IMG/VR virus record: IMGVR_UViG_3300006654_000150
Span: 1 to 50,750 of that record
Direction: 5' to 3' (one strand)
Origin: a virus
DNA: 50,750 bases
Under the pieces are notes generated by a model. The model was not told the origin of the DNA and searched no databases. It worked only from the letters and a program-made list of their open reading frames with translations. The position numbers and the translations under genes were made by a program. Positions 1 through 49,474 of this stretch are shown in pieces (positions within the stretch are counted from its first letter, which is position 1; each line of letters starts with the position of its first letter).

Positions 1-99
1 ACCTCAAACACGCCGCCTTCGTATTTGATGTATTCGCCAGTGCCTTCATCTCCAAACACGCCCGTTGCGGCCTGAAGTTCGCCACTGAAGACGGCATTG
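1..99. repeat. Left copy of the 99-bp exact terminal overlap
   Basis: acctcaaacacgccgccttcgtatttgatg...gacggcattg is identical to 50652..50750. It lies inside a coding frame, so it is an assembly closure overlap and not a physical end signal. Confidence 0.95.
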
Positions 100-5172: not shown

Positions 5173-5650
5173 TGCCTTCCCAGAGTCCAGGGGTGTTTTG
5201 TGGGGTGTAGCGGTCGGCGGGCAGTTGCACATCAAGGATGGGCTCCACTTCCAGGGACAGGCTTACGGTCGTTCCGCTGATCGTGAAATCCACGGACTCA
5301 AACTGGGCGGGTCCGAACTCGGCCACATTGGGAGCTGAGGCCACCACTAACCAGAGGTTGATGACCACGCGGGAGTTCACCGACCGGAGCCGGCGAATCA
5401 GCTGGATGTCAGCCGCCTCAAAATCAATCGTGGCCCGGGGCGTTCCGTCTGCCGTGTCCTCGGGCAATTCCAGACTGAATCGGCCCGGCTGATAGGTCTG
5501 CGTTGAGCCAGACACATTACTGTCGATGGATTGCGTGTTATCGACGTAGTAATACTTGGTGCCATCGAAATCCGCCTCGATGATGGCGATAACAGCGGCG
5601 CTGGTGGTCTGAGCGTAGATGTCACGCAGGAACTGGTCGGAGTACGGCAT
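5165..5650 (-). CDS. Minor tail protein (gpL position, DUF1833-like)
   Basis: 161 aa, coupled to both neighbours. Call rests on position and general resemblance. Confidence 0.5.
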   Translation of the reverse strand: MPYSDQFLRDIYAQTTSAAVIAIIEADFDGTKYYYVDNTQSIDSNVSGSTQTYQPGRFSLELPEDTADGTPRATIDFEAADIQLIRRLRSVNSRVVINLWLVVASAPNVAEFGPAQFESVDFTISGTTVSLSLEVEPILDVQLPADRYTPQNTPGLWEGND

Positions 5651-5997
5651 TACGGCAGCTTCTCCATCGTCAGTCTCAGGCGATAGATGTCCGGGCTCTC
5701 AGGGGTTAGCTCGTATGGCGCGACCATGATGTATTCAGACGTGCCGCCGTACAGAAAGTCAGGCTTTGTGAACTGCAGGGCGCCGTTGGTCAGATTGCTC
5801 TCGTGAAACACCAGGAACGTGTCAACTTGCGCCTTGGTAATGGTGTACTGCTCGGTGACATCGTGCGGCTGCGCTGTAAACCGGGGGCGCTGCTTTGTCG
5901 ATCCATCCATGGGGGAGCGGATAGTCGTATCCTGCGGAACGTCGCTGAAGTTTTCCCGGTTCGGGAGTTGCGGCAAGGACGCCGGCCATATCGCCAT
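5650..5997 (-). CDS. Minor tail protein (gpM position)
   Basis: 115 aa. Starts on the stop of the tape measure gene. Positional call. Confidence 0.45.
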   Translation of the reverse strand: MAIWPASLPQLPNRENFSDVPQDTTIRSPMDGSTKQRPRFTAQPHDVTEQYTITKAQVDTFLVFHESNLTNGALQFTKPDFLYGGTSEYIMVAPYELTPESPDIYRLRLTMEKLP

Positions 5998-7853
5998 CAG
6001 ACACGCCTCCCTTTGCTCTTGAGATCGAACCGGCTGCCCATGGCGCGGTCATGCTCGCCCCGGGCAATGTTGTTGTTCACGGTGTCGCGGATGATGACGC
6101 GCAGGCGGCGCTGGCCGTCCTGATCCGTGGTTTCTTCGGTCTGATAGTCGTGGTTGCCGGTGCTTTGATCGATGACTTGGAAGCTTACGCTCATGCCGCC
6201 CATCGACTGGCCTTTGGTGTGATCTATTACCGTTTCATTGGGGTGCAGGATCGCGGGGAATCCACCCTGTCCGTCGAGACCGCCTGTGCGAGAACCGCCA
6301 CCGGTATACCCGCCCCCAAGATAAGAACCCTGGTACTCCTGGGACTGTATCTCGGCCACCTGAACGCCGGCCAGAGCGCCAAGCGATAGCGCTAACGGAA
6401 CTCTCGCTAAAGGCGGGATCGTCGGGTCTCCGAGCACTGAAGCGATGGACAGCGCGGCAGCGATTGCGGCCTGAGATGACGCAAGATTCTTGTATCGCTG
6501 GAACGACTCTTCGCCGCCCTTTTCAGCAATGCTAGCCAGGTTTCCGAAGAATTGTCCTGTCAGCTGCAGGGATTTCTCCTGACCCGATGTGAAGACTCGG
6601 TTTTTCTGGGACTCAAGTTGCAAGAGCTCTTCGTTTCTTCGGCGGGCCGACTCCACCTCAAGCCGGTTCCGCTCCTCTACGCTATCAATAACGCCCAGCC
6701 TCAGCGCATCATTCAGCGCCATCACGCGCTCATTGTGAGCCTGCCTGATAGCGAACTCTTGATCCAGGCCATCCCGGACCGCTTGCGCCCTAGCGCGGAT
6801 GCTCTGAATAATCTCTCCGCCTCGATCCTGAGCGCTTACGCGCTGCAACAAAGGGTCCTCGGAGGCAGTGATCTTGTATTGCTCGCGCAACAGCTTCAGC
6901 CGTTCTGCTTCTTGGCTGTAGGCGTCCAACTTGTCGTAGTAGGCGTTGGTCAGATTTCTGGAAATTCTGACGGCTTCTGAATCAGCTCCGTTTTTCTCAA
7001 GCTGCGCAATTTTGGCAAGCTGGATAACCCTCTCGCTGGCCCCAAACGTCTCTATTTGGAACTGGAGCGACTTCGTAAGAGACTCAATTTCTTCATTCGC
7101 GTCGTCAGCTCCGATGCCGCTAAGCATCTCGTCGAATGCTTTTCTGGAATGCTCAGCACGTTTTTCTGCTGTATCAATTTTGCCGGCAAGCTCGGTTATT
7201 TCATCTTGCGTTTCCCTGAGGTCGTCAGCATTGAAGACGTCCGCAAGCCCCGGATCATTGGCCGCCATAGACTGCAGCCTAAGCAAGTTGCTCTCGGTTT
7301 CCCGGAGCTTTTCAAGCTCTTCCCGCTGCTCGGCAATTCTTTTGTTTGCCTGCTGCTGCCCTCTAGCCCTCTCAAGCTCCAGCGCTTCTCGTTGATTTTT
7401 GGTGAGGTCGTTGAAGCTTAAATTGAGCTCGTCAATCTGCTCCCGGAGGCTCTTGGTGGCCTCTTCACCCTCTCCCATGCCCCTCACAAACGCGCCAGCA
7501 ATACCAGCACCGATGGCAATAACGGCGCCAAGAACAGCGCCTCCAGGCCCCATTATCCCGGCAAGCTGACTGGCCTGCTGCCCGAAGGCAACAATTGCAG
7601 ACTGACCAGCGCTAACCTGTGTTGCAAAGTCGCCAACCTGAAAGCCAACTTGCTGTATAGAGCCTTTCATGAGCCTGAAACTGCCGCCAGACCCGCGAGC
7701 AGTGTTTGATAGCCTGGCAGTTGATGCCACCAGTTGATCGCTTGCGCGGGTCGCTTTTATAGACCCATCCTGCAACCCACGCAAAGCCTGACGTGCCCGC
7801 TGCGCACCGTTGACATCGATCTGGAGCGCAAGTCTCGCTACATCGGTGGCCAT
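5997..7853 (-). CDS. Tail tape measure protein
   Basis: 618 aa with long coiled-coil stretches and Gly/Ala-rich hydrophobic segments (GAVLGAVIAIGAGIAGAF). Immediately downstream of the G/GT chaperone pair. Confidence 0.85.
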   Translation of the reverse strand: MATDVARLALQIDVNGAQRARQALRGLQDGSIKATRASDQLVASTARLSNTARGSGGSFRLMKGSIQQVGFQVGDFATQVSAGQSAIVAFGQQASQLAGIMGPGGAVLGAVIAIGAGIAGAFVRGMGEGEEATKSLREQIDELNLSFNDLTKNQREALELERARGQQQANKRIAEQREELEKLRETESNLLRLQSMAANDPGLADVFNADDLRETQDEITELAGKIDTAEKRAEHSRKAFDEMLSGIGADDANEEIESLTKSLQFQIETFGASERVIQLAKIAQLEKNGADSEAVRISRNLTNAYYDKLDAYSQEAERLKLLREQYKITASEDPLLQRVSAQDRGGEIIQSIRARAQAVRDGLDQEFAIRQAHNERVMALNDALRLGVIDSVEERNRLEVESARRRNEELLQLESQKNRVFTSGQEKSLQLTGQFFGNLASIAEKGGEESFQRYKNLASSQAAIAAALSIASVLGDPTIPPLARVPLALSLGALAGVQVAEIQSQEYQGSYLGGGYTGGGSRTGGLDGQGGFPAILHPNETVIDHTKGQSMGGMSVSFQVIDQSTGNHDYQTEETTDQDGQRRLRVIIRDTVNNNIARGEHDRAMGSRFDLKSKGRRV

Positions 7854-7856
7854 AGC

Positions 7857-8219
7857 TTACCTCTGGCGTGGTTTCTGGGTGTCCGACTGGCGCTGGCGCT
7901 GGTCGCTGATTTCTTTCTGGAGGGAGAACACAAAGGCGCGGTCCATCTTCATGAGCACGGCGAACTCTTCTCTACGGACCAGTTCGCCGTTAATCTCCGC
8001 CCATGACTGCCATTCAAGCGGCGTTAGAAGTTGAGGCATGCCGGAATCGCTGCGTCTTGTAGCGGCAGCATCGGCATACCACTCCCAGAGATAGCGGCCC
8101 TGCTTGGGTGGCCTGACCCGTGGCGACTCGACCATGAATCGCTCATTCCGATCTCGCCGAGTCTCGCCATTCTGGTCCGGCGTGTCGTACCGAGCCTCAT
8201 TTGCTAAGGCTTCGCACAA
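7857..8219 (-). CDS. T-frame segment of the tail assembly chaperone, probably expressed as a G-T fusion by -1 frameshift
   Basis: The frame is -1 relative to the G ORF. It stays open upstream to a TGA inside G, so it overlaps the last ~12 G codons. No convincing independent start (TTG only). Confidence 0.6.
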   Translation of the reverse strand: MCEALANEARYDTPDQNGETRRDRNERFMVESPRVRPPKQGRYLWEWYADAAATRRSDSGMPQLLTPLEWQSWAEINGELVRREEFAVLMKMDRAFVFSLQKEISDQRQRQSDTQKPRQR

Positions 8220-8227
8220 CTCACGGC

Positions 8228-8596
8228 TCAGGCTTGATAAAAATCCTTGGTGCGGCGGACCTCAAAAGCCACTTGCTCCCTCAGCGCAATGACCGAGCAG
8301 ATGTCTTTGGCGAGATCTTCGCTATACTTCGGTTTCTCGCCCCGCCAGTTCGCATCGCCCTCGAACTCGACATTCACAATGTGAGAGGACCATCGCGCTA
8401 TATCGTAGTCCTCGGCGTCCTTATCGGTGGCATCCTTGCCTTTTTCAATAATCATGTCGTTCGCCGCTCGCTGAGCTTTCATGACCCGGTCGTCATGGCT
8501 ACAGGCGAGCGTGAGAATCATGCCGGTCGGCTTTCCGTCAGCCGGGTTCTGAACGTTGTAGTGCTTCTCGATTGGCTTGATCTGAGACAAATCCAT
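8228..8596 (-). CDS. Tail assembly chaperone (gpG analogue)
   Basis: 122 aa acidic protein between the tube and tape measure genes, with an overlapping -1 frame ORF downstream. Confidence 0.65.
   Translation of the reverse strand: MDLSQIKPIEKHYNVQNPADGKPTGMILTLACSHDDRVMKAQRAANDMIIEKGKDATDKDAEDYDIARWSSHIVNVEFEGDANWRGEKPKYSEDLAKDICSVIALREQVAFEVRRTKDFYQA
8239..8243 (-). promoter_or_regulatory. Candidate -1 slip site (U5 run, GAU UUU UAU) for G-T fusion
   Basis: Minus-strand ...AAG GAT TTT TAT CAA GCC TGA. The T5 run lies within the window where both the G and T frames are open. Not a canonical X XXY YYZ heptamer. Confidence 0.35.
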
Positions 8597-9099
8597 TACG
8601 CAGCCTCTTTCACGATCTGCTCTTGGTTCAGGCCTAGACTGTAGTTTTCCAGGTCAAAATCCTCGTTGCCGCCGTTGGGGTGAGTCGGGCCAGTGACTAC
8701 GCCACGGTTATAGCGGACGGTGCCGTTCGTTCCGCCGTTTGGCTTGTCGGACAGTTCATATTTGAATGCATAGTTGTTCTGGTTGGCGACCAATGCAGAT
8801 GCTCGCATAGCGATCTGGCCGGGGTCAGAACCAATCCGGCGACACTCAACTACGGGATCACCCGCATTTGCGATGCCCTTGCCCTTCTGGGTTACTTCTG
8901 TCGCCAACTCGTCATAAGTTGGAAGGTTTTGTGTTACACCTGTTTCGCCGAAATTACCGACACCTACAACTTGCAGCCAAGTAAGCCCATCAAAAGCAGC
9001 AAGGTTGAGGTTATCGTTCTGCGGCAGAGGATCACCAGATCCATCTACAGCAATGTAAAACTTGGCGCCTTTTTGGGTGAGTGCCTGTGCCATGTTCAA
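8596..9099 (-). CDS. Major tail tube protein
   Basis: 167 aa. Sits just upstream of the chaperone pair. Beta-rich composition. Confidence 0.7.
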   Translation of the reverse strand: MNMAQALTQKGAKFYIAVDGSGDPLPQNDNLNLAAFDGLTWLQVVGVGNFGETGVTQNLPTYDELATEVTQKGKGIANAGDPVVECRRIGSDPGQIAMRASALVANQNNYAFKYELSDKPNGGTNGTVRYNRGVVTGPTHPNGGNEDFDLENYSLGLNQEQIVKEAA

Positions 9100-9136
9100 T
9101 TCCTCATGTGCGGTTTGCGTGAAACTCTGTGGGGTG

Positions 9137-9526
9137 TTACTCGGAGTATTCGACTGTTACAGGGAGGCGCATGCGGTCGTCTTCAATGCGCGCGGAACTT
9201 GTGTAGGGGTGACTGCCGACACGGATGTTGCCGGAAATCCTGGTGCCTTTGGGGAAAACCGCTTGCACCGCTTCGGCTGCTTCGCGCAGCTTTATCTCTG
9301 ATTGTGGACGACTGGCTACAGTCACCTGATATATCCCCTGGGGGCTGACGTAGCCGTCATCTGCGAGCCTGTCATCGACGCCTTGATTGGGAAGATATAT
9401 GACCTCCAGCCATTCGCCGTTAGCGGGCGGAGTAAAATCAATTCCCGGCCATGCAACCGGGTAGCCAAGCGCGGCAGCCTCAAGTATCTGGTTAAGTGCC
9501 GTTTCAATGGCAGAGTTTGCCGTCAT
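9137..9526 (-). CDS. Tail terminator / tail completion protein (gpU position)
   Basis: 129 aa, directly upstream of the tube gene. Overlaps the upstream gene by 4 nt. Confidence 0.5.
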   Translation of the reverse strand: MTANSAIETALNQILEAAALGYPVAWPGIDFTPPANGEWLEVIYLPNQGVDDRLADDGYVSPQGIYQVTVASRPQSEIKLREAAEAVQAVFPKGTRISGNIRVGSHPYTSSARIEDDRMRLPVTVEYSE

Positions 9527-19324: not shown

Positions 19325-19627
19325 TTACATCCACCAAAAATCAACATCGATATCCGGGCTCGTTGCGCCGGCCAGAACAATCTGCGTGTCGCCTCGCCCA
19401 ACCTTGATTTCCTCTGCCGTAGTCATTGCCTCGGTAATCGTGGCAACGGTCACAAATGCGTCACGGTCGGCGCTGTATTTCTGGACGGTGACGGTTCCGC
19501 TACCGAACGCACCGGTTGCAATCAGCATCAGCGAACCAGCACCGCCGCGCAGGTTCACATCGGTGGCCGAGTTTCCCAGGGATTCGGTGCCGTTCGCCGT
19601 CAGGTTGATCAGTGACATTTCGCTCAT
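19325..19627 (-). CDS. Hypothetical small beta-rich protein
   Basis: 100 aa. ATGA overlap with the upstream 733-aa gene. Confidence 0.5.
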   Translation of the reverse strand: MSEMSLINLTANGTESLGNSATDVNLRGGAGSLMLIATGAFGSGTVTVQKYSADRDAFVTVATITEAMTTAEEIKVGRGDTQIVLAGATSPDIDVDFWWM

Positions 19628-21825
19628 GACTTGATTGCCTCTTTAATGCTGCTCATGGCCGGGCGCCTCATGGATCGCTTGAAGCCGATGCGCGAATTGA
19701 TAGGGGTTGCGATTTCCGACACCACATTCAGAACACCATTCGCCTCAACCGCATCATTCCCCGCCGCATCCTGCCCGTTCAGGGTCATGGGGTAGGTATC
19801 GAGCGCCAGTTCTGGAAGCTGCTGACTCCATGTGCCACCGGAGGGGGTTGGGTTGTAGGTAACGCTATTGACTACCAGGGTGAGGCTTGTGGCATCCCCT
19901 GAACTGCCGGTAACCACCGGAGTGGTGTCTGTGGTCGTCAGGGCGTTGATGGAGATAACAGGCGCTACGCCATCCACAAGGACGCCAGAGGTGTCGCCAA
20001 CGCTGTTCAGCGCCAGTGTGGCGTTGTTGCTTGAGGCATCCTGCAGTGTTCCGCCTTCCAGTGTGAGGCTGGATACAGCAATGCCGTTGTCGTCTTCGTC
20101 GCCTGCCTGAACTGTGTAGGTGAACACCAGGGCGCTTGAGCCGCTACCGGATACGTAGTCGGCCTGGCGAGACGTTCCGCCGATATCAAGATTCAGCGCC
20201 GGAGTGCCCGTGACCGTAACGGCTTCGTCCCAGTTGACGGTAAAGCTCAGGTCATCGCCAATGGCGTAAGTGCCAGCAGTTGGCACCCCCACGCTTTGGG
20301 TAACCGGCCCCGTCACATCGGGCGGCTGCTGGGTGCTGTTGTTCGTTACCGCCTGCCCGCTGAGCGTTGCCAGATCGTTTGGTGTGGCCGCCTGATCCTG
20401 GAAGCCGTCTCCGGGCTGCGTGTAGCCAATCGTCAGCGTGTCTTCGTCGGTCAGTGTGCGTGATGGCGTCAGGTTGACAATCGTGTCGTCTGTGCCGTCT
20501 ACCGACGCAGAGCTGACAGAGACGCCTGCAAGGCTGATGGCCCAGCCGCCAGATCCGCCTGCGCCAACCTGCATGGATTCGGACATCTGTACGGCAATGT
20601 TATTGCCCGCCGTGGGTACAGAGGCGCTTGAGATGGTGGGGGCGGTTTCGTCCGTGCCATCAACGGTCGCCGTCGCCTGAAACGTTCCGGTGGCGCCCGA
20701 CTCTGGCACAAAATACTTCAGGGTTGCTGTGGACTCTCCGGCAGCAACTTCGGTGCTGTGGAGTGCAATGTCGTTGAGTTCGTCTTCCGCCGCGTCCATG
20801 GCGGCCCAATCGACGACGACCACGCCGGAATCAAAGTCAGTTACAACGCCCCACTCTACCGGGCCATCTGTGGCGAATGCAGTATCGAAGAATGCTGAGT
20901 TCGCGTCAGGCTCCCCGTGCGTGACCAGCTCATAGGGGTAGCTGTTGGCGTAGCTAATGACTGTGCTGGCTGTCGTGCTGTCCACAGATACAACCAGGTC
21001 CGCAGTGCCGTCATCAGCAATCAGCGGAGCGGTGTAGCTGTAGGTTGATCCGCTGACCAGCGTTAGAGTGCCGACGCTTGTGCCGTTCAGTGTGGCGCTT
21101 ACCGGGGCCGCGCTGTTGCCTGACAGGGTGAACTCGGCTGTATCGCCCTCGCTGGTGATGTCATCTGCAGAGGATACTGAAGGCCCAGAACTTAGAGGGT
21201 CGTCAGCATCGTATGTCGGTGATCCGTTAACCGTCAGGGCTGAGGCGGCCCCTGTTTCATTTGAGTTGCTTATCAGATCCGCGCCGTCGGGTAAGACCGC
21301 ATTGATTTCTGAAACATTTGTGGCGGAATTATATGCCGCAGCATCCACAGCCGATATTGCCGACCCCGACCGCCTGTAGTATGCAGCCTTGCCGCTCAAA
21401 AAGTTGTCAATTACACCGTCATTGCCGCTGTTTACGCGGGCGCCAATCAGCATTCCATCGTTTGTGTTCGTGTTTATGCTGTAGGAAACAGTTTCGGCAG
21501 GCTGATCATCTAAATACAGCGTTATGCTCGACCCATCATTAACAAGAACTACGGAGTGCCATGTGTCGGCGCTGATCGCAACTTTGCCGGTCTGGTTGTA
21601 GGTAGACCCATGAATGACCCCACGAACACCAGCCGGTGATTCGGTTGTGTATTGCGGGTAAAAGCCGTTCTGGATTCCACTGTCGTCGTTGAAAAAGCCG
21701 ACAGGGGTCTGGTCAACCGCCAGCGTGTCTGTTTTAAACTTTATTGCTACGGTTAGTGCCGCGTTCGAGTTCTTGGAAAAAGACTCCCTTAGCCACTGGT
21801 CCACCCCGTTTAAATTAATCGCCAT
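19624..21825 (-). CDS. Large LamG (concanavalin-like) plus tandem Ig-like repeat protein
   Basis: N-terminal LamG-like segment is TVAIKFKTD...WHSVVLVNDGSSITLYLDD. It is followed by repeats of the adhesin type (VTVTGTPALNLDIGGTSRQADYVSGSGSSALVFTYTVQAGDEDDNG). Confidence 0.6.
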   Translation of the reverse strand: MAINLNGVDQWLRESFSKNSNAALTVAIKFKTDTLAVDQTPVGFFNDDSGIQNGFYPQYTTESPAGVRGVIHGSTYNQTGKVAISADTWHSVVLVNDGSSITLYLDDQPAETVSYSINTNTNDGMLIGARVNSGNDGVIDNFLSGKAAYYRRSGSAISAVDAAAYNSATNVSEINAVLPDGADLISNSNETGAASALTVNGSPTYDADDPLSSGPSVSSADDITSEGDTAEFTLSGNSAAPVSATLNGTSVGTLTLVSGSTYSYTAPLIADDGTADLVVSVDSTTASTVISYANSYPYELVTHGEPDANSAFFDTAFATDGPVEWGVVTDFDSGVVVVDWAAMDAAEDELNDIALHSTEVAAGESTATLKYFVPESGATGTFQATATVDGTDETAPTISSASVPTAGNNIAVQMSESMQVGAGGSGGWAISLAGVSVSSASVDGTDDTIVNLTPSRTLTDEDTLTIGYTQPGDGFQDQAATPNDLATLSGQAVTNNSTQQPPDVTGPVTQSVGVPTAGTYAIGDDLSFTVNWDEAVTVTGTPALNLDIGGTSRQADYVSGSGSSALVFTYTVQAGDEDDNGIAVSSLTLEGGTLQDASSNNATLALNSVGDTSGVLVDGVAPVISINALTTTDTTPVVTGSSGDATSLTLVVNSVTYNPTPSGGTWSQQLPELALDTYPMTLNGQDAAGNDAVEANGVLNVVSEIATPINSRIGFKRSMRRPAMSSIKEAIKS

Positions 21826-22931
21826 TACAGAGGCTCCCCATTTTGGTTATAAGGCGTGCCGTCTGATTTAATGACATAGAGGTAGTTGCCAGACAAAGAC
21901 CCGAGACCCGCAGAGTCAAGAACGACATTGCTGATAGATGTGCTGGACCAATCTGTTTCGGAGACAGGCAAAATCTCTGTGTGTGTGCACGCATCCCATG
22001 TCGAGGCGTTGCCAATCTCAACCCTGGCCTCAGTTGTTGCTACATAGGAGTCGGTGTAGTCCCTTATCGCGCCATCATAGTCTGTATCCATAAAGCCAAG
22101 TCGGAAATTTTTCCAGCCAGTACAATCAACGGTCATGTTGTCTGGCTGCCACATGAAAGACTCGTCTTCTATCCCGACCGTTCTTCCCCGCCAAACTCTA
22201 CAAACCCCGTCCGAAATGCCGGGAGTGTTAAGAGCTACAAGCGTATCCCACCGCTGCCACTTGTCCTCGGTGTCACTACCAAGAGACCATCCGGCGCTAC
22301 TGAAAACATTGGAATCGGAGCCCGAAAGATTAGCCCCCATTGCGTAGGCAGTTTGTCCGGCAGGTACGTGCAAGATAGGTTGGGGAACTTCGGTTAATCC
22401 TGCTCCTGACGTGCCATTCCCGAACACATAGTAATCTTTCCAATTGACATTGCTGGCCACGTAAGAGCCAGATTTCGAATAGCGCCAATAGCTAATAAAG
22501 AGCTTCTGATCCGATCTGCCACCCCCGTACCCGAAACCGCCGTTACGGTTGCTGCCGCCGTTGTTTGATCGACGGCGAAGGGACATTGACCTTCCTGGCC
22601 TCGTGTTAGCGTTCGAGAAAAGCAGATGCTCTCCAGAGGAGTCAGCGCCGAGACCTATTACAAACGTTCCTAGTGTGCCCTGGGCTCCTAATGTAGCGGC
22701 CTCCCCCTCAATTGGGTCGTTGTTTGCGCCTTCATCGCCGCGAGCGTACTGGACAACAACCCCGTCAAAGTCTCCGAAGTTACCGTCTGTCGGCGAGACT
22801 GAAACAGTAGACCCTTCAGAAATAGGCCCCGTTATGCTTAGGTTTCCAGAGCCCCCGCCGCCGCCATTATCCAGGTCAAGCAAAAGAGACCTAGACGCAG
22901 CAACAGACAGCGGTGAGTCGTTTGTGGCCAT
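21825..22931 (-). CDS. Hypothetical Gly/Ser/Trp-rich protein, possible beta-jelly-roll carbohydrate-active protein
   Basis: 368 aa from the ATG at 22931 (GGGAG 7 nt upstream). Its stop overlaps the start of the LamG/Ig gene. No motif I can name. Confidence 0.5.
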   Translation of the reverse strand: MATNDSPLSVAASRSLLLDLDNGGGGGSGNLSITGPISEGSTVSVSPTDGNFGDFDGVVVQYARGDEGANNDPIEGEAATLGAQGTLGTFVIGLGADSSGEHLLFSNANTRPGRSMSLRRRSNNGGSNRNGGFGYGGGRSDQKLFISYWRYSKSGSYVASNVNWKDYYVFGNGTSGAGLTEVPQPILHVPAGQTAYAMGANLSGSDSNVFSSAGWSLGSDTEDKWQRWDTLVALNTPGISDGVCRVWRGRTVGIEDESFMWQPDNMTVDCTGWKNFRLGFMDTDYDGAIRDYTDSYVATTEARVEIGNASTWDACTHTEILPVSETDWSSTSISNVVLDSAGLGSLSGNYLYVIKSDGTPYNQNGEPL

Positions 22932-23042
22932 CACTTGGCTCCCATTAAGGTGCTCTGATCGTCCGAGTTGATTTCGCGAAAACGTCGGAATTATTTACAG
23001 TCGAACGGCCCAAAAGGTAATAGGCTCTTGATTTTAAATGCC

Positions 23043-23058
23043 TGGCACGGACTATGCT
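23043..23058 (+). promoter_or_regulatory. Sigma54 (RpoN) -24/-12 promoter
   Basis: TGGCACGGACTATGCT against consensus TGGCAC-N5-TTGCW. GG and GC are correctly spaced with one mismatch. Lies 35 nt upstream of the PEP-CTERM gene start. Confidence 0.6.
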
Positions 23059-23092
23059 GTCATGGCGGTACAGCTAAAACAGGAGAAATTGC

Positions 23093-23629
23093 GTGAAATG
23101 GATTCTTTTAATAGTCTTTCTTGTGCCCTTCAATGTCTCCGCCACCGTGATCGATTACCGGTTCACTGGTGCCGCGCTTGATTTAATTGATCACAAGACC
23201 ACTTATGATGTGCTTATTGATTTCTCGGTAGACACTGAAACAGCGCTTCTTACAAGCTTTGAAATGAACTTTCAGGGCGAATCATGGGCGCAGAACCCTG
23301 GATTTCCTGGCCAAGTTTCGGTTGTGTCAACAGTGCCAGATGTCCCTCGCGTTGAGGTTTTCTGGCTGAAATGGGACCCCCAGCCAACTAACGGGCAAGA
23401 CACGTTGTTTTTTTATGGTTTCCCTGAATGGAAACTCTATCACTATGGCGAAGTCGCAAATCCACTATTGCACTTGGAAAAATCTTGGATAAGTGCGTCT
23501 GTTTTTGAAACAGGTGGTGGTGACTCATTTATCTTGGATGGACAGTTTGCAAAAGTCCCCGAACCGGCCTCCCTATCCCTACTTGCGCTCGGCCTGGCCG
23601 CTATCGGCATCAGGCGACGATTCCGCTGA
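23093..23629 (+). CDS. Secreted PEP-CTERM sorting-domain protein (exosortase substrate), cargo gene
   Basis: Signal peptide MKWILLIVFLVPFNVSA. C-terminus VPEPASLSLLALGLAAIGIRRRFR is a textbook PEP-CTERM anchor. GTG start 6 nt after AGGAGA. Clearly lower GC than the flanks. Confidence 0.85.
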   Translation: MKWILLIVFLVPFNVSATVIDYRFTGAALDLIDHKTTYDVLIDFSVDTETALLTSFEMNFQGESWAQNPGFPGQVSVVSTVPDVPRVEVFWLKWDPQPTNGQDTLFFYGFPEWKLYHYGEVANPLLHLEKSWISASVFETGGGDSFILDGQFAKVPEPASLSLLALGLAAIGIRRRFR

Positions 23630-23860
23630 CCACTTGCGCAGTTCGGTTTTGTCGGTGTTGCAGATCCGCAGCATGGTCTGCAGTTCGCTTGCGTAATCGG
23701 CCAGGTCGATATTCTTCATGGTCAGCGCAGGCGGAGGAATCGGGCACGGCTCCAGCAGGTAGGCTGGTGGATACCGGTATTCAGTCTTGGTCTGGACGAG
23801 CGCCGGCTTGCAGGCTGTCAATAACAGCAGCAGGCACATCATCATGAGTCCACGGATCAT
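23579..23860 (-). CDS. o-spanin (outer-membrane lipoprotein, Rz1-like)
   Basis: Lipobox LLLTAC. The mature part is Pro-rich. It starts inside the i-spanin gene in another frame and extends past its stop (overlapped architecture). Confidence 0.7.
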   Translation of the reverse strand: MIRGLMMMCLLLLLTACKPALVQTKTEYRYPPAYLLEPCPIPPPALTMKNIDLADYASELQTMLRICNTDKTELRKWSAESSPDADSGQAERK

Positions 23861-32622: not shown

Positions 32623-33454
32623 AACAATCACCTCCCGCTGCCCAGCGGCGAGCCACTTCCCGGTTGTGATCCTCTACGGAGGGGCGTCCAGCAAAGCGGC
32701 TTGTACCGTCCACCAGGTTGGATATCGGCAAAGGTGCGTCCAACTGCCCGATGTACTGGTTGAACTTCTCGGCATTGAACAGGGTGGCGGGCCTGAGATA
32801 TTGAGACATACCCGGATTGCTTGCCCATTCCTTGCATTTGCGATCAATGACTGCTTTGAAGTCAGCAAGCGTTGCCCCCTCCTTCGCCCTGGCCAGGATC
32901 AGTTTTGTGTTGGTTGGGGCTGATCGGAAATTGCGGCCTGCTTTCGAGTTGAGGTATTCGATAACTTCAGCGGAAATGTCTGGTGCGGCTTCAGTCGCAC
33001 AAGGTTGTTTCTTTGTATCTGTATCTGTATCTGTATCTGTATCTGTATCTGTATCTGTATGGGAACCTGTCCGCATGTCCGTCTGTTCTGCGTTCGCACT
33101 GCGTTCGCATGGTGTCGGCTCATCAGGCGTAGGCTTATGTCGCTTTTCGGCTGCTTTCCTTGCTGATTCTGACTTTGACTTGACCTTATCCAGATCCTTA
33201 TCGAGTCGATTGTGGAACCAGTAGCCATCCTTAATGACAAAAAATTCTTCCAGCGCAGGCCGTAGCTCCTGCCAATGTTCTGCGGACGTTCTGCAAACGC
33301 ATTGCAAACGCTGGTCGTTATCCGGCAGCGGCTTACCTGTCTGCCAGTAGTTCATAATGAGAAGCAGGTACGCGCCATGCTGATCGACATTCAAGTGCAT
33401 GGTGTCGGCCAGGTAATCGGCAACATACAGCTGCATGTATGGAAGTGCTGCCAT
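32609..33454 (-). CDS. Replication initiator-like protein (DUF1376/YdaU N-domain plus conserved phage C-terminal domain)
   Basis: N-domain: PYMQLYVADYLADTMHLNVDQHGAYLLLIMNYW. C-domain: VIEYLNSKAGRNFR...MSQYLRPATLFNAEKFNQY. The two are joined by a (TD)7 linker. Confidence 0.75.
   Translation of the reverse strand: MAALPYMQLYVADYLADTMHLNVDQHGAYLLLIMNYWQTGKPLPDNDQRLQCVCRTSAEHWQELRPALEEFFVIKDGYWFHNRLDKDLDKVKSKSESARKAAEKRHKPTPDEPTPCERSANAEQTDMRTGSHTDTDTDTDTDTDTDTKKQPCATEAAPDISAEVIEYLNSKAGRNFRSAPTNTKLILARAKEGATLADFKAVIDRKCKEWASNPGMSQYLRPATLFNAEKFNQYIGQLDAPLPISNLVDGTSRFAGRPSVEDHNREVARRWAAGGDCYDQE
33015..33060. repeat. Hexanucleotide microsatellite (GTATCT)x7.7
   Basis: Perfect tandem copies that encode the (TD)7 linker of the initiator gene on the minus strand. 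Confidence 0.95.
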
Positions 33455-43941: not shown

Positions 43942-44390
43942 TCGAGTCAGTGTTGAAACCGAAGACTCCCAACAACAGCCTTTGGATCACCCAGGAGGTG
44001 AAACAGTTTTCAGAGTATTCAGCCGTTGGCTATTACCACCCTCGGCTGAAAATCTTTGTAATCAGCGCTGTTGAGGTAGCGGAAAAGGAAATAGGGCCAG
44101 AGTTTCATATATCCATCAGCAAGTCGGTCGGAAACCGCCCGCGTCGATGCTCTATGGCTGAAGCTGAAATGGTGCTCAAGCAATTTGGCGCTGAAGGTGC
44201 CAAGGAGGACAACCACAGCAGTCTGATTCGCAGCTTCTGGATGCCGATCAACGAATCACTAGTTGGCATCGAATGCGACTGCAAAGACGATGAGGCGGTT
44301 GTTCGGGAAGGTGATTTCGAGTGGCGGCCACTGACGCAGGCGAATGCGGACAGGGCGAAGCGATTGAATGATGGGGGCTGGAAGGTATGA
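43938..44390 (+). CDS. Hypothetical protein
   Basis: ATG 43938 follows AGGAGG. 150 aa. Confidence 0.55.
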   Translation: MIESVLKPKTPNNSLWITQEVKQFSEYSAVGYYHPRLKIFVISAVEVAEKEIGPEFHISISKSVGNRPRRCSMAEAEMVLKQFGAEGAKEDNHSSLIRSFWMPINESLVGIECDCKDDEAVVREGDFEWRPLTQANADRAKRLNDGGWKV

Positions 44391-44479
44391 GCAAAATAGC
44401 ACTGAGCGAGTGGAAGAAAGAGAACTACCCAGGCAAGCGCCCCACCCTGCGAACTTTGCAGAACTGGTGGCTGTCATGA
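44387..44479 (+). CDS. 30-codon ORF resembling the N-terminal half of a Xis-type excisionase
   Basis: MSKIALSEWKKENYPGKRPTLRTLQNWWLS compared with lambda Xis MYLTLQEWNARQRRPRSLETVRRWV. ATGA overlaps at both ends. Confidence 0.3.
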   Translation: MSKIALSEWKKENYPGKRPTLRTLQNWWLS

Positions 44480-45027
44480 ATTTGGCTAAAGACATTCCGA
44501 GCCAAGCAGAGCTTCGGAAGATATTCGATTACAACCCCGAAACTGGCGACCTAATATGGCTTCGGAGGCCTGAAAAAGGCTCACAATGGAATGGGCGATT
44601 TGCCGGAAAGGTGGCGGGCACACCTCATAAAGGCTACATCCGCGTAAAACTGGATGGCGAAAAGTATCAGGCTCACAGGCTGATATGGAAATGGGCTTAC
44701 GGTGAAATCCCGAACGACAAGCAGGTTGACCACGAGGATGGAATCGGGAGCCACAACCGACTCAGCAATTTGCGACTGGTGAGCAATCAACAAAACCAGT
44801 TAAACAGATCGGGCAATAAGGGCCGAGGCTATAAGGGCGTCTATCCAAAAGGTAAGCGCTGGAAGGCTGAAATCACCACGCCTGAAGGCCGGAAGTATCT
44901 TGGCATGTTTGACGCACCAGAACAGGCCGCAATTGCCTACGACACAGCGGCGCGGCGATGGCATGGCGAGCATGCCCGATTGAATTTTCCGAACGTATAT
45001 GAGGCAGAAGGTCAGGAGGCAGCATGA
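44476..45027 (+). CDS. HNH homing endonuclease with AP2 domain (paralog 2)
   Basis: HRLIWKWAYGEIPNDKQVDHEDGIGSHNRLSNLR plus GVYPKGKRWKAEITTPEGRKYLGMFDAPEQAAIAYD. The N-terminus aligns with the 11955..12566 product from ATG 44476. Confidence 0.8.
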   Translation: MNLAKDIPSQAELRKIFDYNPETGDLIWLRRPEKGSQWNGRFAGKVAGTPHKGYIRVKLDGEKYQAHRLIWKWAYGEIPNDKQVDHEDGIGSHNRLSNLRLVSNQQNQLNRSGNKGRGYKGVYPKGKRWKAEITTPEGRKYLGMFDAPEQAAIAYDTAARRWHGEHARLNFPNVYEAEGQEAA

Positions 45028-45242
45028 GTGCAGCAGAAAAGATCGAACGATTTCCAGTAACGTGCGGGCGCTGGGTGCGCGGCTCTCTCCTGCCCTCTAT
45101 GTACGGGATCAGCGAGGAAACCGCCCGAAAATATCGGGAGCGCGGCATCTGGCTGGAGGATAAGCACTGGCGCAAAGACCCGATTGGCCGGTATGTTTAT
45201 AACCCTTCAGCGATTGATGACTGGTTTGAGGGGAAGTTGTGA
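45024..45242 (+). CDS. xis: Excisionase
   Basis: 72 aa, directly upstream of and overlapping int. WRKDPIGRYVYNPSAIDDWF resembles the Xis C-terminal wing. Confidence 0.65.
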   Translation: MSAAEKIERFPVTCGRWVRGSLLPSMYGISEETARKYRERGIWLEDKHWRKDPIGRYVYNPSAIDDWFEGKL

Positions 45243-46519
45243 AGCTACCGAAGGGCGTTGAGCGGTTGCCGGCCGGCGTGGAAATCCATGGAAACAGGAT
45301 CCGGATAGCGTTCATGTTCTCCGGCAAGCGCTGCCGGGAACCTCTGCCGGGCGTGGCGAAAGTCACCAAAGGCACGATTGCGTATGCCGAGAACAAGCGG
45401 AAAGTGATACAGACCGAGATTCAGGAAGGCCGGTTTGATTACGCCTCGCACTTCCCCGGGTCCAAAAATGCCGCCCTGTTTAGCGGCTGGGGTGGTCCGG
45501 ACACGGGGCGCTTGGTATCGGAGGGTGTGACCGCCTGGCTGACGATTCAGGAAGGTAAGCGGGCGGTGAGCACCTACCGGAATTACAAGTCGAAGGCCAG
45601 GCATGTAACCGCCAAGTGGCCCCGGCGCCGAATCGCGGACGTGGCTAAATCCGAGATCGAACTATTCCAGACCGAACTATTGCGCCAGGGACTCAGCCCG
45701 AAAACCGCCAACGACATTTTCACGGTGGTGCGCGGCGTTTGGGCGTCAGCATTCTCTGATGGCGTCATTCGCGCCAATCCTCTGGACCGGATCCCGAATG
45801 TGGAGCGCGACCAGTCGGACGATTACGCGGACCCCTTCGACCTGAAAGAGCTTGAGCGCATCCAGTCAGTCAAGACCATGCGCCAGCAGGATATCAATAT
45901 GGTGATGTTCGCCTGTTGGTGTGGGTTGTCGCTGTCGGAATTGCTGGCATTGTCCTGGGATGACGTCGATACCGTTGACTGGGTGATCCATGTAAAGCGA
46001 GCGCGGGTTGAGAATGCGTTCAAGGTGCCGAAAGAACGGGCGCGGATACGTCGGGTTGAATTAATCGAGCCCGCGAAATACTGGCTGCAGCGCCAGCGGG
46101 AATCCACTTATCTGCAGCCGCCTGTGATTATCCAGGTGGTACAGCGGGACAACATTACCGTTAAGGATGACACGTTCAGGCCGGTGTTTCGTAATGGCCT
46201 GAGCAATCTGCCGTGGACCTATGGCAGTCTGTTGCGCTGGTTCTCTGGCCACCTGCGCAGAGCAAAAGTCAGGCATCGAGGCCCAAACCAGTGCCGGCAC
46301 ACGTTCGCCAGTCAAATGCTATCGAATTACGTTAGCCTGGAGTGGGTGGCCCGGCAACTTGGCCACACGGATACCACGATGGTGAAGAAACACTACGGCC
46401 GGTGGATCCAGAAAGACACACCAAATATGGCCGGACAGGTATCAGAAATGTTGGGCTATAAACCGGACAGAAGCGGACAGGAAAGCGCCGATTTTGCCCC
46501 AAAATTGCCCCAAAAATAA
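45239..46519 (+). CDS. int: Tyrosine integrase
   Basis: C-terminal catalytic region CRHTFASQML...LGHTDTTMVKKHYGRW (R, HxxR, Y). GTG start overlapping the xis stop. Confidence 0.9.
   Translation: MKLPKGVERLPAGVEIHGNRIRIAFMFSGKRCREPLPGVAKVTKGTIAYAENKRKVIQTEIQEGRFDYASHFPGSKNAALFSGWGGPDTGRLVSEGVTAWLTIQEGKRAVSTYRNYKSKARHVTAKWPRRRIADVAKSEIELFQTELLRQGLSPKTANDIFTVVRGVWASAFSDGVIRANPLDRIPNVERDQSDDYADPFDLKELERIQSVKTMRQQDINMVMFACWCGLSLSELLALSWDDVDTVDWVIHVKRARVENAFKVPKERARIRRVELIEPAKYWLQRQRESTYLQPPVIIQVVQRDNITVKDDTFRPVFRNGLSNLPWTYGSLLRWFSGHLRRAKVRHRGPNQCRHTFASQMLSNYVSLEWVARQLGHTDTTMVKKHYGRWIQKDTPNMAGQVSEMLGYKPDRSGQESADFAPKLPQK
46465..46479 (+). repeat. Two GGACA copies 10 bp apart (candidate P-arm Int/Xis sites)
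   Basis: cGGACAgaagcGGACAg inside the int 3' end. Same word and phase as the three copies right of the core. Confidence 0.4.
46498..46512 (+). repeat. CCCAAAATTGCCCCA motif, copy 1
   Basis: Shares the 15-nt core with 46680..46702 and 47025..47047. Confidence 0.6.
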
Positions 46520-46560: not shown

Positions 46561-46606
46561 TGGCGGAGAGGGAGGGATTCGAACCCTACACCGTCACCGG
46601 ACAGGG
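46561..46606 (-). other. attP core: 3' portion of a class II tRNA (tRNA-Ser-like), not a full gene
   Basis: Minus strand reads ...CCGGTGACGG(variable arm) TGTAGGGTTCGAATCCCTCCCTCTCCGCCA. It has a T-arm, a 3' acceptor strand, G73 and CCA. No 5' acceptor strand or D-arm lies upstream. Confidence 0.7.
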
Positions 46607-46648
46607 GCGGACAACAGCGGAAAATCAGCCGCTTAACGATTTTCGATA

Positions 46649-46673
46649 GGACAATGGCGGACATTATGGGACA
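46649..46673 (+). repeat. Three GGACA copies at exact 10-bp phase (candidate P'-arm sites)
   Basis: GGACAatggcGGACAttatgGGACA. Confidence 0.45.
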
Positions 46674-46679
46674 GTATTT

Positions 46680-46702
46680 CAGCCCAAAATTGTCCCAGGA
46701 GG
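46680..46702 (+). repeat. CAGCCCAAAATTGTCCCAGGAGG leader element, copy 2
   Basis: Matches copy 3 at 21 of 23 positions. Ends in the Shine-Dalgarno sequence of 46711..47022. Confidence 0.7.
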
Positions 46703-46710
46703 ATTAGGTC

Positions 46711-47022
46711 ATGAGCGAACGCGGATCTTGGATTACCGAGTACATCTATTGTGAAGACACCTATACAGCCCTCCGCAAATATTTCGAGGCGAACCTCTGC
46801 CCAGAAAACAAGTACTTTACGCTTTCTTCGGACGAAGATACCTTCAAGCGCTCCATATTGGCCGGCAAAATTGGCGGACTTTATTCTGGCGAGGAGATTG
46901 TCACCTTTGAGCATGAAATGATTCCGGACATTAAAGAGATCATTAAGGTTCCAGTACGGATATGCGTGCTTGCAGAAAGCGGCAGTCGAATTTTTGAGAT
47001 TGAACCTATAGGCAAAAGCTAG
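46711..47022 (+). CDS. Hypothetical att-adjacent cargo protein 1
   Basis: AGGAGG 8 nt upstream. 103 aa with globular-looking composition. Lower GC than the phage backbone. Confidence 0.6.
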   Translation: MSERGSWITEYIYCEDTYTALRKYFEANLCPENKYFTLSSDEDTFKRSILAGKIGGLYSGEEIVTFEHEMIPDIKEIIKVPVRICVLAESGSRIFEIEPIGKS

Positions 47023-47024
47023 GC

Positions 47025-47047
47025 CAGCCCAAAATTGCCCCAAGAGG
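47025..47047 (+). repeat. CAGCCCAAAATTGCCCCAAGAGG leader element, copy 3
   Basis: Ends in the Shine-Dalgarno sequence of 47056..47352. Confidence 0.7.
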
Positions 47048-47055
47048 TGAGCGAT

Positions 47056-48027: not shown

Positions 48028-48067
48028 GAGTCACCTCTCCATAAGCTCAGGCGGAGGCCGGAACGGC

Positions 48068-49459: not shown

Positions 49460-49474
49460 TCCAAACCCCTCCCG

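Follow-up and report, generated by a model that had tools for sequence, protein, structure and literature searches.

Genetic Organization of the Locus and Its Product

The window (the whole stretch of DNA that was analyzed, 50,750 nucleotides) is the complete, circularly assembled genome of a temperate Marinobacter phage, as seen from an encoded integrase and a terminal overlap of 99 nt. Between 4.3 and 33.6 kb, the minus-strand coding is interrupted by a sole large break at 22935..23578, which is occupied by a plus-strand ORF. Its surroundings are formed by the genes for o-spanin, i-spanin, M15 endolysin, terminase, and portal protein. The gene and the features next to its ends are the following:

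23081..23086, plus strand: Shine-Dalgarno sequence AGGAGA, 6 nt 5' of the GTG, read directly; a purine-rich box is aligned here in the homologues
23093..23629, plus strand: PEP-CTERM protein gene, 178 amino acids, GTG start (ORF; TIGR02595, PF07589)
23579..23860, minus strand: o-spanin, Rz1/LysC-like lipoprotein (PF23793 LysC, 58.4 bits; phrog_456)

In an earlier note on this DNA, a 178-amino-acid ORF with a GTG start behind AGGAGA had been described as the only plus-strand gene within the minus-strand late region, richer in A and T than its flanks and overlapping the o-spanin gene convergently by 51 nt. All of this is borne out. The GC content of the gene is 48.0%, compared with 56.5% for the window, and its GC3 is 0.47 versus 0.64-0.76 in the neighbors; the last 17 o-spanin codons run convergently into the PEP-CTERM tail, with exactly 51 nt (23579..23629) being shared. 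The overlap is also present in two related loci (L001 and L017) and in the isolated phage PS3, and the DNA of the overlap and tail is 96% identical between the window and L017, although the cassettes described below are otherwise swapped. A convincing intrinsic terminator was not found 3' of the gene; the search returned a weak hairpin at 23696..23710, 67 nt beyond the stop codon, and such sites are at chance level in number.

Judged from its sequence, the product is a secreted all-β protein with a genuine PEP-CTERM sorting tail, which would be processed by an exosortase. The signal peptide (residues 1-17, MKWILLIVFLVPFNVSA, followed by T), also claimed before, is recognizable by inspection from its n-, h-, and c-regions and a predicted cleavage site after V-S-A, and it is conserved in the family alignment. 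The passenger portion (about residues 18-153) is predicted to be all-β, the AF2 model (pLDDT 79.8) comprising 10 strands and a C-terminal helix. A fold search with this domain gave no significant match, the best being LolA-like (E 1.2e-3, TM 0.30). The sorting tail corresponds to residues 155-178 (nt 23555..23626), with a helix predicted by AF2 at 160-177; the extreme C-terminus, VPEP-ASLSLLALGLAAIGI-RRRFR, consists of the PEP motif, a hydrophobic helix, and a basic cluster. On the model by which the PEP-CTERM assignment was to be checked, TIGR02595, the C-terminus VPEPASLSLLALGLAAIGIRRRFR reaches 25.8 bits (cutoff 16), and on PF07589 30.0 bits (cutoff 20.7); all homologues tested pass the PEP-CTERM models with 19.1-26.1 bits.

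The Upstream Regulatory Region

According to Haft 2006 (PMC1569441), cellular PEP-CTERM genes are preceded by a 17-nt motif 1 ending in TTTACA, which is located 32-92 nt 5' of a sigma-54 motif; the latter is 23 nt or more away from the start codon, and more than 200 nt of upstream noncoding DNA are found in more than 65% of the genes, as a tendency and not as a strict criterion. The phage gene is a single-gene unit, too. Its intergenic region of 158 nt (22935..23092) is more compact than is typical of the cellular genes and, unlike there, contains a single copy of motif 1. Three elements are conserved:

22983..22999, plus strand: motif 1, CGTCGGAATTATTTACA, 17 nt ending in TTTACA, predicted PrsR enhancer (UAS) site
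23022..23034, plus strand: third conserved island, A..nTTGA, A/T-rich, between the enhancer site and the promoter (9-sequence alignment)
23043..23058, plus strand: motif 2, TGGCACGGACTATGCT, predicted sigma-54 -24/-12 promoter, with GG at 23044-45 and GC at 23056-57

Motif 2 agrees with TGGCACG-N4-TTGCW at 11 of the 12 specified positions, has the GG-N10-GC spacing, and is separated from the GTG by 34 nt. A near-consensus sigma-54 promoter had been proposed at this place before. The match, its spacing, and its conservation across lineages uphold that proposal, while the motif by itself does not attain significance: with up to one mismatch allowed, it occurs once in the window against 0.8 expected from shuffles of the window, which is within chance. 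A degenerate expression combining both motifs was rejected as a specific detector, 1.4 matches being expected per shuffled window. The case therefore rests on comparative conservation and fixed spacing, and it is the position of motif 2 and its conservation at divergent homologous loci that lend it significance. GG-N10-GC keeps its place in nine upstream regions, which represent about six divergent lineages; it is situated 23-39 nt 5' of the start codon in every distinct lineage, within flanking DNA that is unalignable. In the 7 loci of a further alignment (A3), TGGC-N8-TGC does not vary.

Motif 1, which had been missed in the earlier note, lies 44 nt upstream of motif 2. The consensus YGTCRG-N7-TTACR is kept in 9/9 upstream regions compared, and the spacer to the -24 GG measures 44 nt in eight of them and 43 nt in one. 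CGTCGGAATTATTTACA fits the published motif 1 by its 17-nt length, TTTACA end, and spacing, the published logo being a figure and the comparison thus not position by position. By this evidence, the regulatory unit is a predicted PrsR enhancer site, a fixed 44-nt spacer, and a predicted sigma-54 promoter, as in proteobacterial PEP-CTERM genes. The proposed connection of the phage to the PrsK/PrsR regulon is, by virtue of motif 1 and the fixed spacer, more strongly supported than when it was first suggested. In the third island, the A and TG columns are invariant among the nine sequences; possibly, it would serve as a DNA-bending (IHF-like) site. No inverted repeat or dyad was found in the regulatory region. 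Riboswitches for c-di-GMP are located ahead of certain PEP-CTERM genes; here, the upstream DNA matched none of the RNA families of Rfam, riboswitches included. RpoN dependence and a promoter mapped as TGGCAC/CTGCTT have been shown experimentally for the cellular pepA of Aquincola (PMC9850573); for the phage gene, RpoN dependence is predicted.

Homologues in Phages and in the Marinobacter Chromosome

An identical protein (WP_075196158.1) is encoded by Marinobacter sp. C18 in a prophage on a 327-kb contig. The same slot is used in the same orientation in at least six divergent phage lineages that differ in terminase and endolysin, among them that of the isolated temperate phage PS3 (vB_MalS-PS3) of M. 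algicola. The equivalent gene of PS3 is unannotated or misannotated and has gone unnoticed so far; it codes for a different passenger domain and was located through synteny. A tblastn search of isolated phages with the PEP-CTERM protein gave no match at E<=1, and scans of genomes and metagenomes yielded no copies beyond those already known.

A homologue of 54% identity, P0002, is encoded on the Marinobacter chromosome in the strain-variable part of an EPS gene cluster (loci L002/L003). It resembles the phage gene in motif 1, the 44-nt spacer, motif 2, and the distance to the start codon, and also in GC content (48.3% versus 48.0%; 46.2% in the EPS variable region). Phage lineages and the cellular homologue thus have in common motif 1, motif 2, and a 43-44-nt spacer in otherwise unalignable DNA. 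Different from the phage gene, P0002 has glycosyltransferase and Wzy genes around it and an exosortase gene about 9 kb away, and its C-terminal tail is different and longer (…NRRRQRSLLFQLA), whereas the phage copies share one homogenized tail.

Host Sorting Machinery and Proposed Pathway

The EPS cluster of P0002 includes an exosortase, and its proteins group with Marinobacter proteins at >=90% identity, which provides the taxonomic link. A homology search with the 129-amino-acid exosortase fragment of L002 gave no match. The expectation that candidate hosts encode an exosortase together with PrsK/PrsR is supported, at the level of the genus, by the Marinobacter chromosomal loci L032/L033. The exosortase of these loci is a 517-amino-acid EpsH-EpsI protein scoring 137.3 bits on TIGR02602 (cutoff 105.55) and 186.3 bits on the XrtA model, just under the cutoff of 208. 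At L032, PrsK (TIGR02916, 632.6 bits, cutoff 300), PrsR (TIGR02915, 655.7 bits, cutoff 502.6), and PrsT (TIGR02917, 377.9 bits, cutoff 312.2) are encoded as well, and the four genes adjoin the EPS cluster of P0002.

Taking these elements together, it is considered likely that the gene is a lysogenic-conversion cargo that is equipped with the full PEP-CTERM cis-regulatory unit of the host, driven by PrsR and RpoN, and sorted by exosortase; that is, the cargo would probably be switched on by the biofilm-matrix regulator of the host and exported by its sorting enzyme. Gene and promoter would most likely have been captured from the strain-variable segment of an EPS cluster in Marinobacter, where P0002, 54% identical and equally low in GC content, is preceded by the same regulatory unit. 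In the lysogen, the histidine kinase PrsK of the host would activate PrsR, which, on motif 1, would drive open-complex formation by the RpoN-holoenzyme at motif 2. This transcription would be independent of the phage repressor and opposite in direction to late transcription. The product would be exported by Sec, its VPEP motif would be recognized by the host exosortase (EpsH/XrtA-like), and the protein would eventually be delivered to the EPS or the outer surface layer. The earlier note had supposed that this is not a described type of phage cargo; in agreement with that, no description of a phage-borne PEP-CTERM/PrsR-box gene was found among the papers searched.

Among bacteria that form biofilms and flocs, PEP-CTERM/exosortase systems are widely distributed, but the functions of their substrates and the chemistry of sorting are poorly understood. 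[quoted passage not shown] The same arrangement is present in the culturable phage vB_MalS-PS3 with its host, Marinobacter algicola DG893, so that its regulation, the sorting of the product, and the phenotype in terms of aggregation and phage adsorption are open to direct experiment.

The Exchangeable Cassette and the Possible Role of the Cargo

On the upstream side, the PEP-CTERM gene is associated with two minus-strand genes:

19624..21825, minus strand: 733-amino-acid protein with an N-terminal ConA-like/LamG domain and C-terminal Ig-like repeats (phrog_30287, 836 bits)
21825..22934, minus strand: 369-amino-acid protein, divergent neighbor, predicted β-jelly-roll with a polysaccharide-lyase/lectin-like fold (AF2, Foldseek)
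19714..23655, no strand assigned: horizontally exchanged block of most of the 733-amino-acid gene, the 369-amino-acid gene, the regulatory region, and the PEP-CTERM gene (alignment to L023)

For the 369-amino-acid protein, no Pfam or PHROG match was obtained; its AF2 model (pLDDT 82.2) is, according to Foldseek, closest to PL14, PL20, and PL36 alginate/glucuronan lyases and to lectin domains (E about 2e-6). The 733-amino-acid protein matches Laminin_G_3 with 30.1 bits (cutoff 27.6) and contains an SWM_repeat; its LamG part is variable and the Ig-like C-terminal part conserved. Sequence searches of the PDB with both proteins returned nothing useful.

The block aligns as one segment of 3,942 bp, at 97.1% identity, with the lambda-like prophage L023 of Marinobacter sp. 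C18, while the terminases of the two phages share 23% amino acid identity and their endolysin and replication genes are unrelated. Between the window and the C18 prophage, identities are 100/95/100% for the passenger, the 369-amino-acid protein, and the LamG N-terminus, and 23% for TerL; between the window and L017, they are 27/25/24% for the same three parts and 95% for TerL. Such co-variation of the PEP-CTERM gene with its lectin/lyase-like neighbors was seen in three informative comparisons. It extends over the N-terminal 220 amino acids of the 733-amino-acid protein, the C-terminus following another pattern, and in the temperate phages compared, the 369-amino-acid gene always accompanies the PEP-CTERM gene. 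The view of the gene as a moron thus needs amendment: a predicted promoter of its own and a deviating base composition agree with it, but the gene is not solitary, being exchanged together with the 369-amino-acid gene and the N-terminal part of the 733-amino-acid gene. From these alignments, it is read as part of a three-gene cassette exchanged between unrelated phage backbones and not as a lone moron. The exchange as a unit suggests that all three parts are concerned with one and the same variable polysaccharide of the host surface. The joint exchange with lyase/lectin-like genes points, tentatively, to a connection of host recognition by phages with EPS-associated proteins, which would be of relevance to marine particle- and algal-associated bacteria.

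Two readings of the biological role have to be weighed. The product might be a matrix protein of benefit to the host, that is, an additional EPS-associated structural protein promoting aggregation or biofilm formation of the lysogen, like PepA of floc formers; the neighbors would then be linked to it through a recombination hot spot common to all, which is located between the lysis genes and the terminase, in the slot of lambda bor. Cellular PEP-CTERM proteins are required for floc formation, with pepA being RpoN-dependent (PMC9850573), and PEP-CTERM genes of Marinobacter are induced in biofilms. Moreover, the slot holds unrelated passenger domains (the 178-amino-acid family, the PS3 type, and the 242-amino-acid P0013 type), and conserved junction sequences flank the variable block. 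What such a role leaves unexplained is why the block always includes the carbohydrate-binding parts of the neighbors and never the PEP-CTERM gene alone, and for this account the chances are considered to be below even, if by no means small.

Alternatively, the protein could act in superinfection exclusion or lytic conversion by covering the EPS or surface receptor of the LamG/lyase-like proteins of the cassette, after the manner of T5 Llp/pb5 or phi80 Cor. This would be in line with the joint swapping of passenger, 369-amino-acid protein, and LamG N-terminus, with the carbohydrate-binding or lyase-like folds predicted for the neighbors, and with the location of the cellular homologue in the strain-variable part of the EPS cluster, as well as with PS6, where a 733/355-amino-acid pair is present and the PEP-CTERM gene is absent. 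A virion or receptor-binding role of the 733- and 369-amino-acid proteins is, however, putative, PS3 possesses a separate large ConA-like tail protein (ORF14), and the correlation over all pairs is weak (Spearman 0.44 for the mid protein and 0.10 for the N-terminus of the large protein), in a test that tells little, most pairs lying at the noise floor. Receptor masking of this kind is regarded as rather unlikely; it would specify the biological role more closely and is compatible with the reading as PrsR/RpoN-driven conversion cargo. In its most elaborate form, which is put forward as a speculation and judged doubtful, the LamG N-terminus, the 369-amino-acid protein, and the PEP-CTERM protein would constitute a matched "recognize and mask" unit for a strain-variable Marinobacter exopolysaccharide. 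The lectin/lyase-like proteins would bind or cut one EPS type, PrsK/PrsR would signal matrix production, and the host exosortase would attach the phage protein to the same EPS, whereby superinfection would be blocked or the matrix of the lysogen protected. If true, this would be the first phage hijacking both exosortase sorting and a host enhancer-binding-protein/sigma-54 circuit for receptor masking.

That the sigma-54-like motif is fortuitous, with the gene being read from an unrecognized sigma-70 or phage-specific promoter or being a decaying passenger, is highly improbable: about one such motif is expected per window and the degenerate composite also occurs in shuffles, but GG-N10-GC, motif 1, and the 44-nt spacing are kept across lineages at 20-54% protein identity and before unrelated passenger domains, no sigma-70-like site was found in 22700-24000, and intact copies of the ORF are present in many metagenomes and isolates, with a confident predicted fold.

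Comparison with Known Systems

A counterpart in position is bor of phage lambda, a surface-protein moron that directly follows Rz/Rz1, precedes cos/Nu1, and lies on the opposite strand. It has its own promoter and is expressed from the prophage, and late transcription crosses it in antisense. Bor is a lipoprotein with a sigma-70 promoter; neither a sorting enzyme of its own nor control through an enhancer is known for it, and it is not known to be exchanged with its neighbors. The phage PEP-CTERM gene is, hence, like bor in slot and strand and unlike it in sorting, promoter type, and cassette exchange. Llp of phage T5 (Llp-pb5) and Cor of phi80 and N15 are receptor-blocking surface lipoproteins that target the protein receptor FhuA and are encoded beside the receptor-binding protein. 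Common to T5 Llp, phi80 Cor, and the present system is a small exported protein whose gene is linked to, and co-varies with, putative host-recognition genes; in contrast, exosortase sorting is predicted and an EPS target presumed here, with blocking and receptor binding by the neighbors being putative.

With cellular PEP-CTERM genes (Haft 2006, PMC1569441; PepA of Aquincola and Zoogloea, PMC9850573), the phage gene shares the order of signal peptide, variable passenger, and PEP-CTERM tail. The likeness extends to the single-gene unit behind a 17-nt TTTACA motif, spacer, and sigma-54 -24/-12 motif, and to a host with exosortase, PrsK, PrsR, PrsT, and an association with an EPS locus. Unlike its cellular counterparts, it is located between lysis cassette and terminase, antisense to late transcription, has a tail overlapping a spanin gene, and moves with two phage genes. 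Serotype-converting phages (gtrABC, oac; P22, Sf6, SfII-type; cf. PMC3851460, PMC2629481) likewise carry temperate cargo that alters the surface polysaccharide layer of the host; theirs are O-antigen-modifying enzymes, whereas the cargo described here would be a sorted protein reliant on the exosortase and the two-component/sigma-54 regulator of the host.

The PEP-CTERM Gene in the Late Region

Temperate Marinobacter phages carry a genuine PEP-CTERM substrate gene. The exact repeat of positions 1..99 at 50652..50750 (a 99-nt end overlap) and the presence of an integrase mark the window as the genome of a temperate phage, assembled to a complete circle of ~50.65 kb; a 50,706-bp contig from a different sample (L025) is circularly permuted relative to it. 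In the direction of late transcription, minus-strand genes for an M15 endolysin, a holin-like protein, an i-spanin, and an Rz1/LysC o-spanin precede the PEP-CTERM slot, which is followed by the 369-aa ORF, a 733-aa ORF matching phrog_30287 and Laminin_G_3, TerS/TerL, and the portal gene. Past the integrase (46600..50710), minus-strand ORFs of 220, 147, 250, and 411 aa lack a Pfam family, and their exact sequences are absent from the searched protein collection.

Features of the window
21825..22934, minus strand, gene of the 369-aa protein (beta-jelly-roll model)
23081..23086, plus strand, AGGAGA before GTG, read from the sequence
23093..23629, plus strand, PEP-CTERM gene, GTG start, 178 aa
23579..23860, minus strand, o-spanin (Rz1/LysC), profile match
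44368..45027, HNH endonuclease, just before the integrase
45239..46519, integrase

The earlier note had singled out a plus-strand ORF amid minus-strand late genes, and it does fill the single large break (22935..23578) that minus-strand coding shows from 4.3 to 33.6 kb. The AGGAGA and GTG start are present as claimed, and so is the 51-nt convergent overlap with the o-spanin gene. The product starts with what is, by inspection, a typical Sec signal peptide (MKWILLIVFLVPFNVSA/T) and ends with VPEPASLSLLALGLAAIGIRRRFR, a PEP-CTERM anchor that passes the proposed check against TIGR02595 (25.8 bits, cutoff 16) and also matches PF07589 (30.0 bits, cutoff 20.7). The gene is indeed AT-richer, with a GC content of 48.0% (GC3 0.47) versus 56.5% for the window. 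Its passenger domain gives a confident all-beta AlphaFold model (pLDDT 79.8), for which the structure search returned no significant neighbour, the best being LolA-like (E 1.2e-3, TM 0.30).

The Upstream Regulatory Unit

Comparison of sequences shows a conserved unit of predicted PrsR box and sigma-54 promoter upstream of the phage gene. The sigma-54 -24/-12 element (motif 2) of the earlier note, TGGCACGGACTATGCT at 23043..23058, agrees with TGGCACG-N4-TTGCW at 11 of the 12 specified positions and has the correct GG-N10-GC spacing; since 0.8 such matches are expected by chance per shuffled window, however, this match alone is not evidence, and the evidence is comparative. When the upstream regions of the collected homologous and analogous loci were aligned, TGGC-N8-TGC was invariant in seven loci. 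GG-N10-GC is found 23-39 nt 5' of the start codon in nine regions from ~6 lineages, the surrounding DNA being essentially unalignable and the encoded proteins sharing 20-54% identity or having unrelated passenger domains. Neither a sigma-70-like promoter nor an Rfam family or hairpin was found around the upstream region of the gene. Experiments on pepA, a PEP-CTERM gene of the bacterium Aquincola, showed that it depends on RpoN and that its transcription starts downstream of TGGCAC/CTGCTT (PMC9850573).

The aligned regions share a further conserved box, YGTCRG-N7-TTACR, with the window copy CGTCGGAATTATTTACA at 22983..22999; this box is absent from the earlier note. According to Haft et al. 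2006 (PMC1569441), proteobacterial PEP-CTERM genes are mostly single-gene operons, preceded by a 17-nt "motif 1" with the 3' end TTTACA, which is the predicted binding site of PrsR, a response regulator that depends on sigma-54, then by a spacer of 32-92 nt and the -24/-12 "motif 2", whose end is separated from the start codon by at least 23 nt. The window agrees with all these numbers (spacer of 43-44 nt, 34 nt to GTG). In eight of these regions exactly 44 nt separate motif 1 from the -24 GG, and in the ninth 43 nt, the spacer sequence itself having diverged. Such near-fixed spacing is what one would expect if an enhancer site and a sigma-54 promoter have to keep their relative helical phase. 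Between the two motifs, a third small conserved island (A..TTGA, 23022..23034) may be a bending site.

Host System and Cellular Homologue

Marinobacter sp. C18 encodes the identical 178-aa protein (WP_075196158.1) in a lambda-like prophage that lies on a contig of 327 kb. A cellular homologue of 54% identity, P0002, shares motif 1, the 44-nt spacer, and motif 2; it is surrounded by glycosyltransferase, Wzy, and flippase genes, in an EPS cluster whose last gene encodes an EpsH-EpsI exosortase. At 90% identity, the proteins of this EPS cluster group with those of Marinobacter (MULTISPECIES, M. alexandrii, M. adhaerens). Through look-up of the conserved acetyltransferase of the cluster, the continuation of the chromosome was reached in a related locus, L032, where the gene order is exosortase, PA14 protein, TPR protein, sigma-54 response regulator, and histidine kinase. 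Marinobacter chromosomes hence encode the cognate exosortase and PrsK/PrsR/PrsT; exosortase and PrsK/PrsR are among the functions that the earlier note had proposed to look for in candidate hosts.

Profile matches in the L032 locus (bits; cutoff)
Exosortase, TIGR02602: 137.3; 105.55
Exosortase as XrtA, TIGR03109: 186.3; 208 (just below)
PrsT, TIGR02917: 377.9; 312.2
PrsR, TIGR02915: 655.7; 502.6
PrsK, TIGR02916: 632.6; 300

The position held by P0002 and a GT4 glycosyltransferase in one EPS cluster (L002 10001..11777) is taken by an Acyl_transf_3 gene in L032 (509..1606), so the cellular copy belongs to a strain-variable part of the cluster. DNA similarity between the window and L002 begins at 23028, 5' of the -24 element. 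The GC contents of the phage gene (48.0%), P0002 (48.3%), and the variable EPS region (46.2%) would fit a capture of gene and promoter as one piece. In M. atlanticus, eight PEP-CTERM proteins were reported, several of them biofilm-induced (PMC8233155).

Cassette Structure and Exchange

Every temperate phage locus has the order lysis genes (leftward), PEP-CTERM gene (rightward), and then, all leftward, genes for proteins of ~360 aa, 500-730 aa, and ~100 aa and the terminase. The terminases differ among these loci (GpA, Terminase_6N, Sf6/phrog_2 type), as do the endolysins (M15, GH108, M23, DUF5675). With the C18 prophage, the window shares a 3,942-bp block (19714..23655) of 97% DNA identity in otherwise unrelated backbones.

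Pairwise protein identities (PEP-CTERM passenger; ~360-aa protein; large protein, N-terminal 220 aa; large protein, C-terminus; TerL)
Window vs C18 prophage: 100%; 95%; 100%; 91%; 23%
Window vs phage locus L017: 27%; 25%; 24%; 96%; 95%
L017 vs phage locus L019: 53%; 41%; 93%; 87%; 21%

From the block and these identities it follows that what is exchanged is the N-terminus of the large protein with its LamG domain, together with the 369-aa protein in full and the PEP-CTERM passenger. The moron reading of the earlier note holds as to base composition, but the gene is part of a cassette and not a lone moron. Conserved junctions bound the unit: the Ig-like C-terminal portion of the large protein, the initial ~13 codons of the gene for the 369-aa protein, and the overlap of PEP-CTERM tail and o-spanin. 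The latter 3' overlap (window 23548..23661; L017 8523..8605) has 96% DNA identity despite the swapped cassettes, and the tail of P0002 is unlike that of the phage copies. It seems that this dual-coding stretch acts as a conserved junction for recombination.

The 369-aa protein belongs to a small family of 12 clusters, for which no Pfam or PHROG family was found. Its confident beta-jelly-roll model (pLDDT 82) best matches lectin domains and PL14, PL20, and PL36 alginate/glucuronan lyases, among them vAL-1 of a Chlorella virus; the protein is a candidate for an EPS-binding or depolymerase function in the phage. In phage PS6 (MF959998, Casjensviridae), the 733- and 355-aa proteins have homologues at 5586..8848 of locus L022, where the DNA of the C-terminal part is 81-86% identical and the genes upstream are large and look structural; inspection of this locus and a motif scan revealed neither a plus-strand gene nor the composite PrsR-box/sigma-54 unit.

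In other loci, the slot is occupied by different PEP-CTERM genes with a common upstream regulatory unit. Phage PS3 (MF959999) encodes, at 7215..7763 of locus L021, a protein with an unrelated passenger and a V-M-E-P tail (TIGR02595, 19.5 bits). Its GenBank CDS (ATN93354.1, record 32635..33102) starts at an internal Met, with loss of the signal peptide; the true start (MTYLQKFF...) is ~81 nt upstream. In a prophage of Marinobacter sp. GCA_041984205.1 (L029 10001..10729), the 242-aa P0013, again with an unrelated passenger, follows motif 1, a 43-nt spacer, and motif 2, which identifies the slot as a hot spot for diverse exosortase substrates. Two tandem 190-aa paralogues, 24 nt apart, are present in L019 (8001..8573 and 8598..9170) and also in L020; the second L019 copy has V-P-E-S in place of V-P-E-P.

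Relation to Known Systems and Proposed Role

The phage gene and its regulation are members of the known cellular system of PEP-CTERM proteins with a PrsR box; for its phage-borne form, no prior description was found. A literature search yielded no paper on phage-borne PEP-CTERM genes or PrsR/sigma-54-controlled phage cargo, and the PS3 genome paper leaves ORFs 33-40 unannotated and does not mention the gene, in line with the earlier note, which knew of no description of this cargo type. According to a 2026 preprint, a conserved protein of Dehalococcoides virus-like elements contains a PEP-CTERM domain; the context there is unrelated.

The proposed link of phage cargo to the sorting pathway and regulon of the host is supported; the PrsR site, the host system, the probable cellular progenitor, and the organisation of the cassette extend it. 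The function of the gene, we infer, would be as follows. In the lysogen, the gene would be silent until the host PrsK/PrsR is activated, whereupon RpoN-holoenzyme would transcribe it independently of phage repression. The product would be exported, and processing by the exosortase of the host would place it in the EPS or outer layer. There it could confer a matrix or aggregation benefit on the lysogen; alternatively, it could mask or protect EPS recognised by the lectin/lyase-like proteins of the cassette. Late phage transcription, starting upstream of the lysis genes, would have to cross the gene in antisense; lambda late transcription likewise passes bor in antisense. Position and orientation of the phage gene recall lambda bor, and in being linked to putative recognition proteins it resembles T5 llp/pb5 and phi80 cor.
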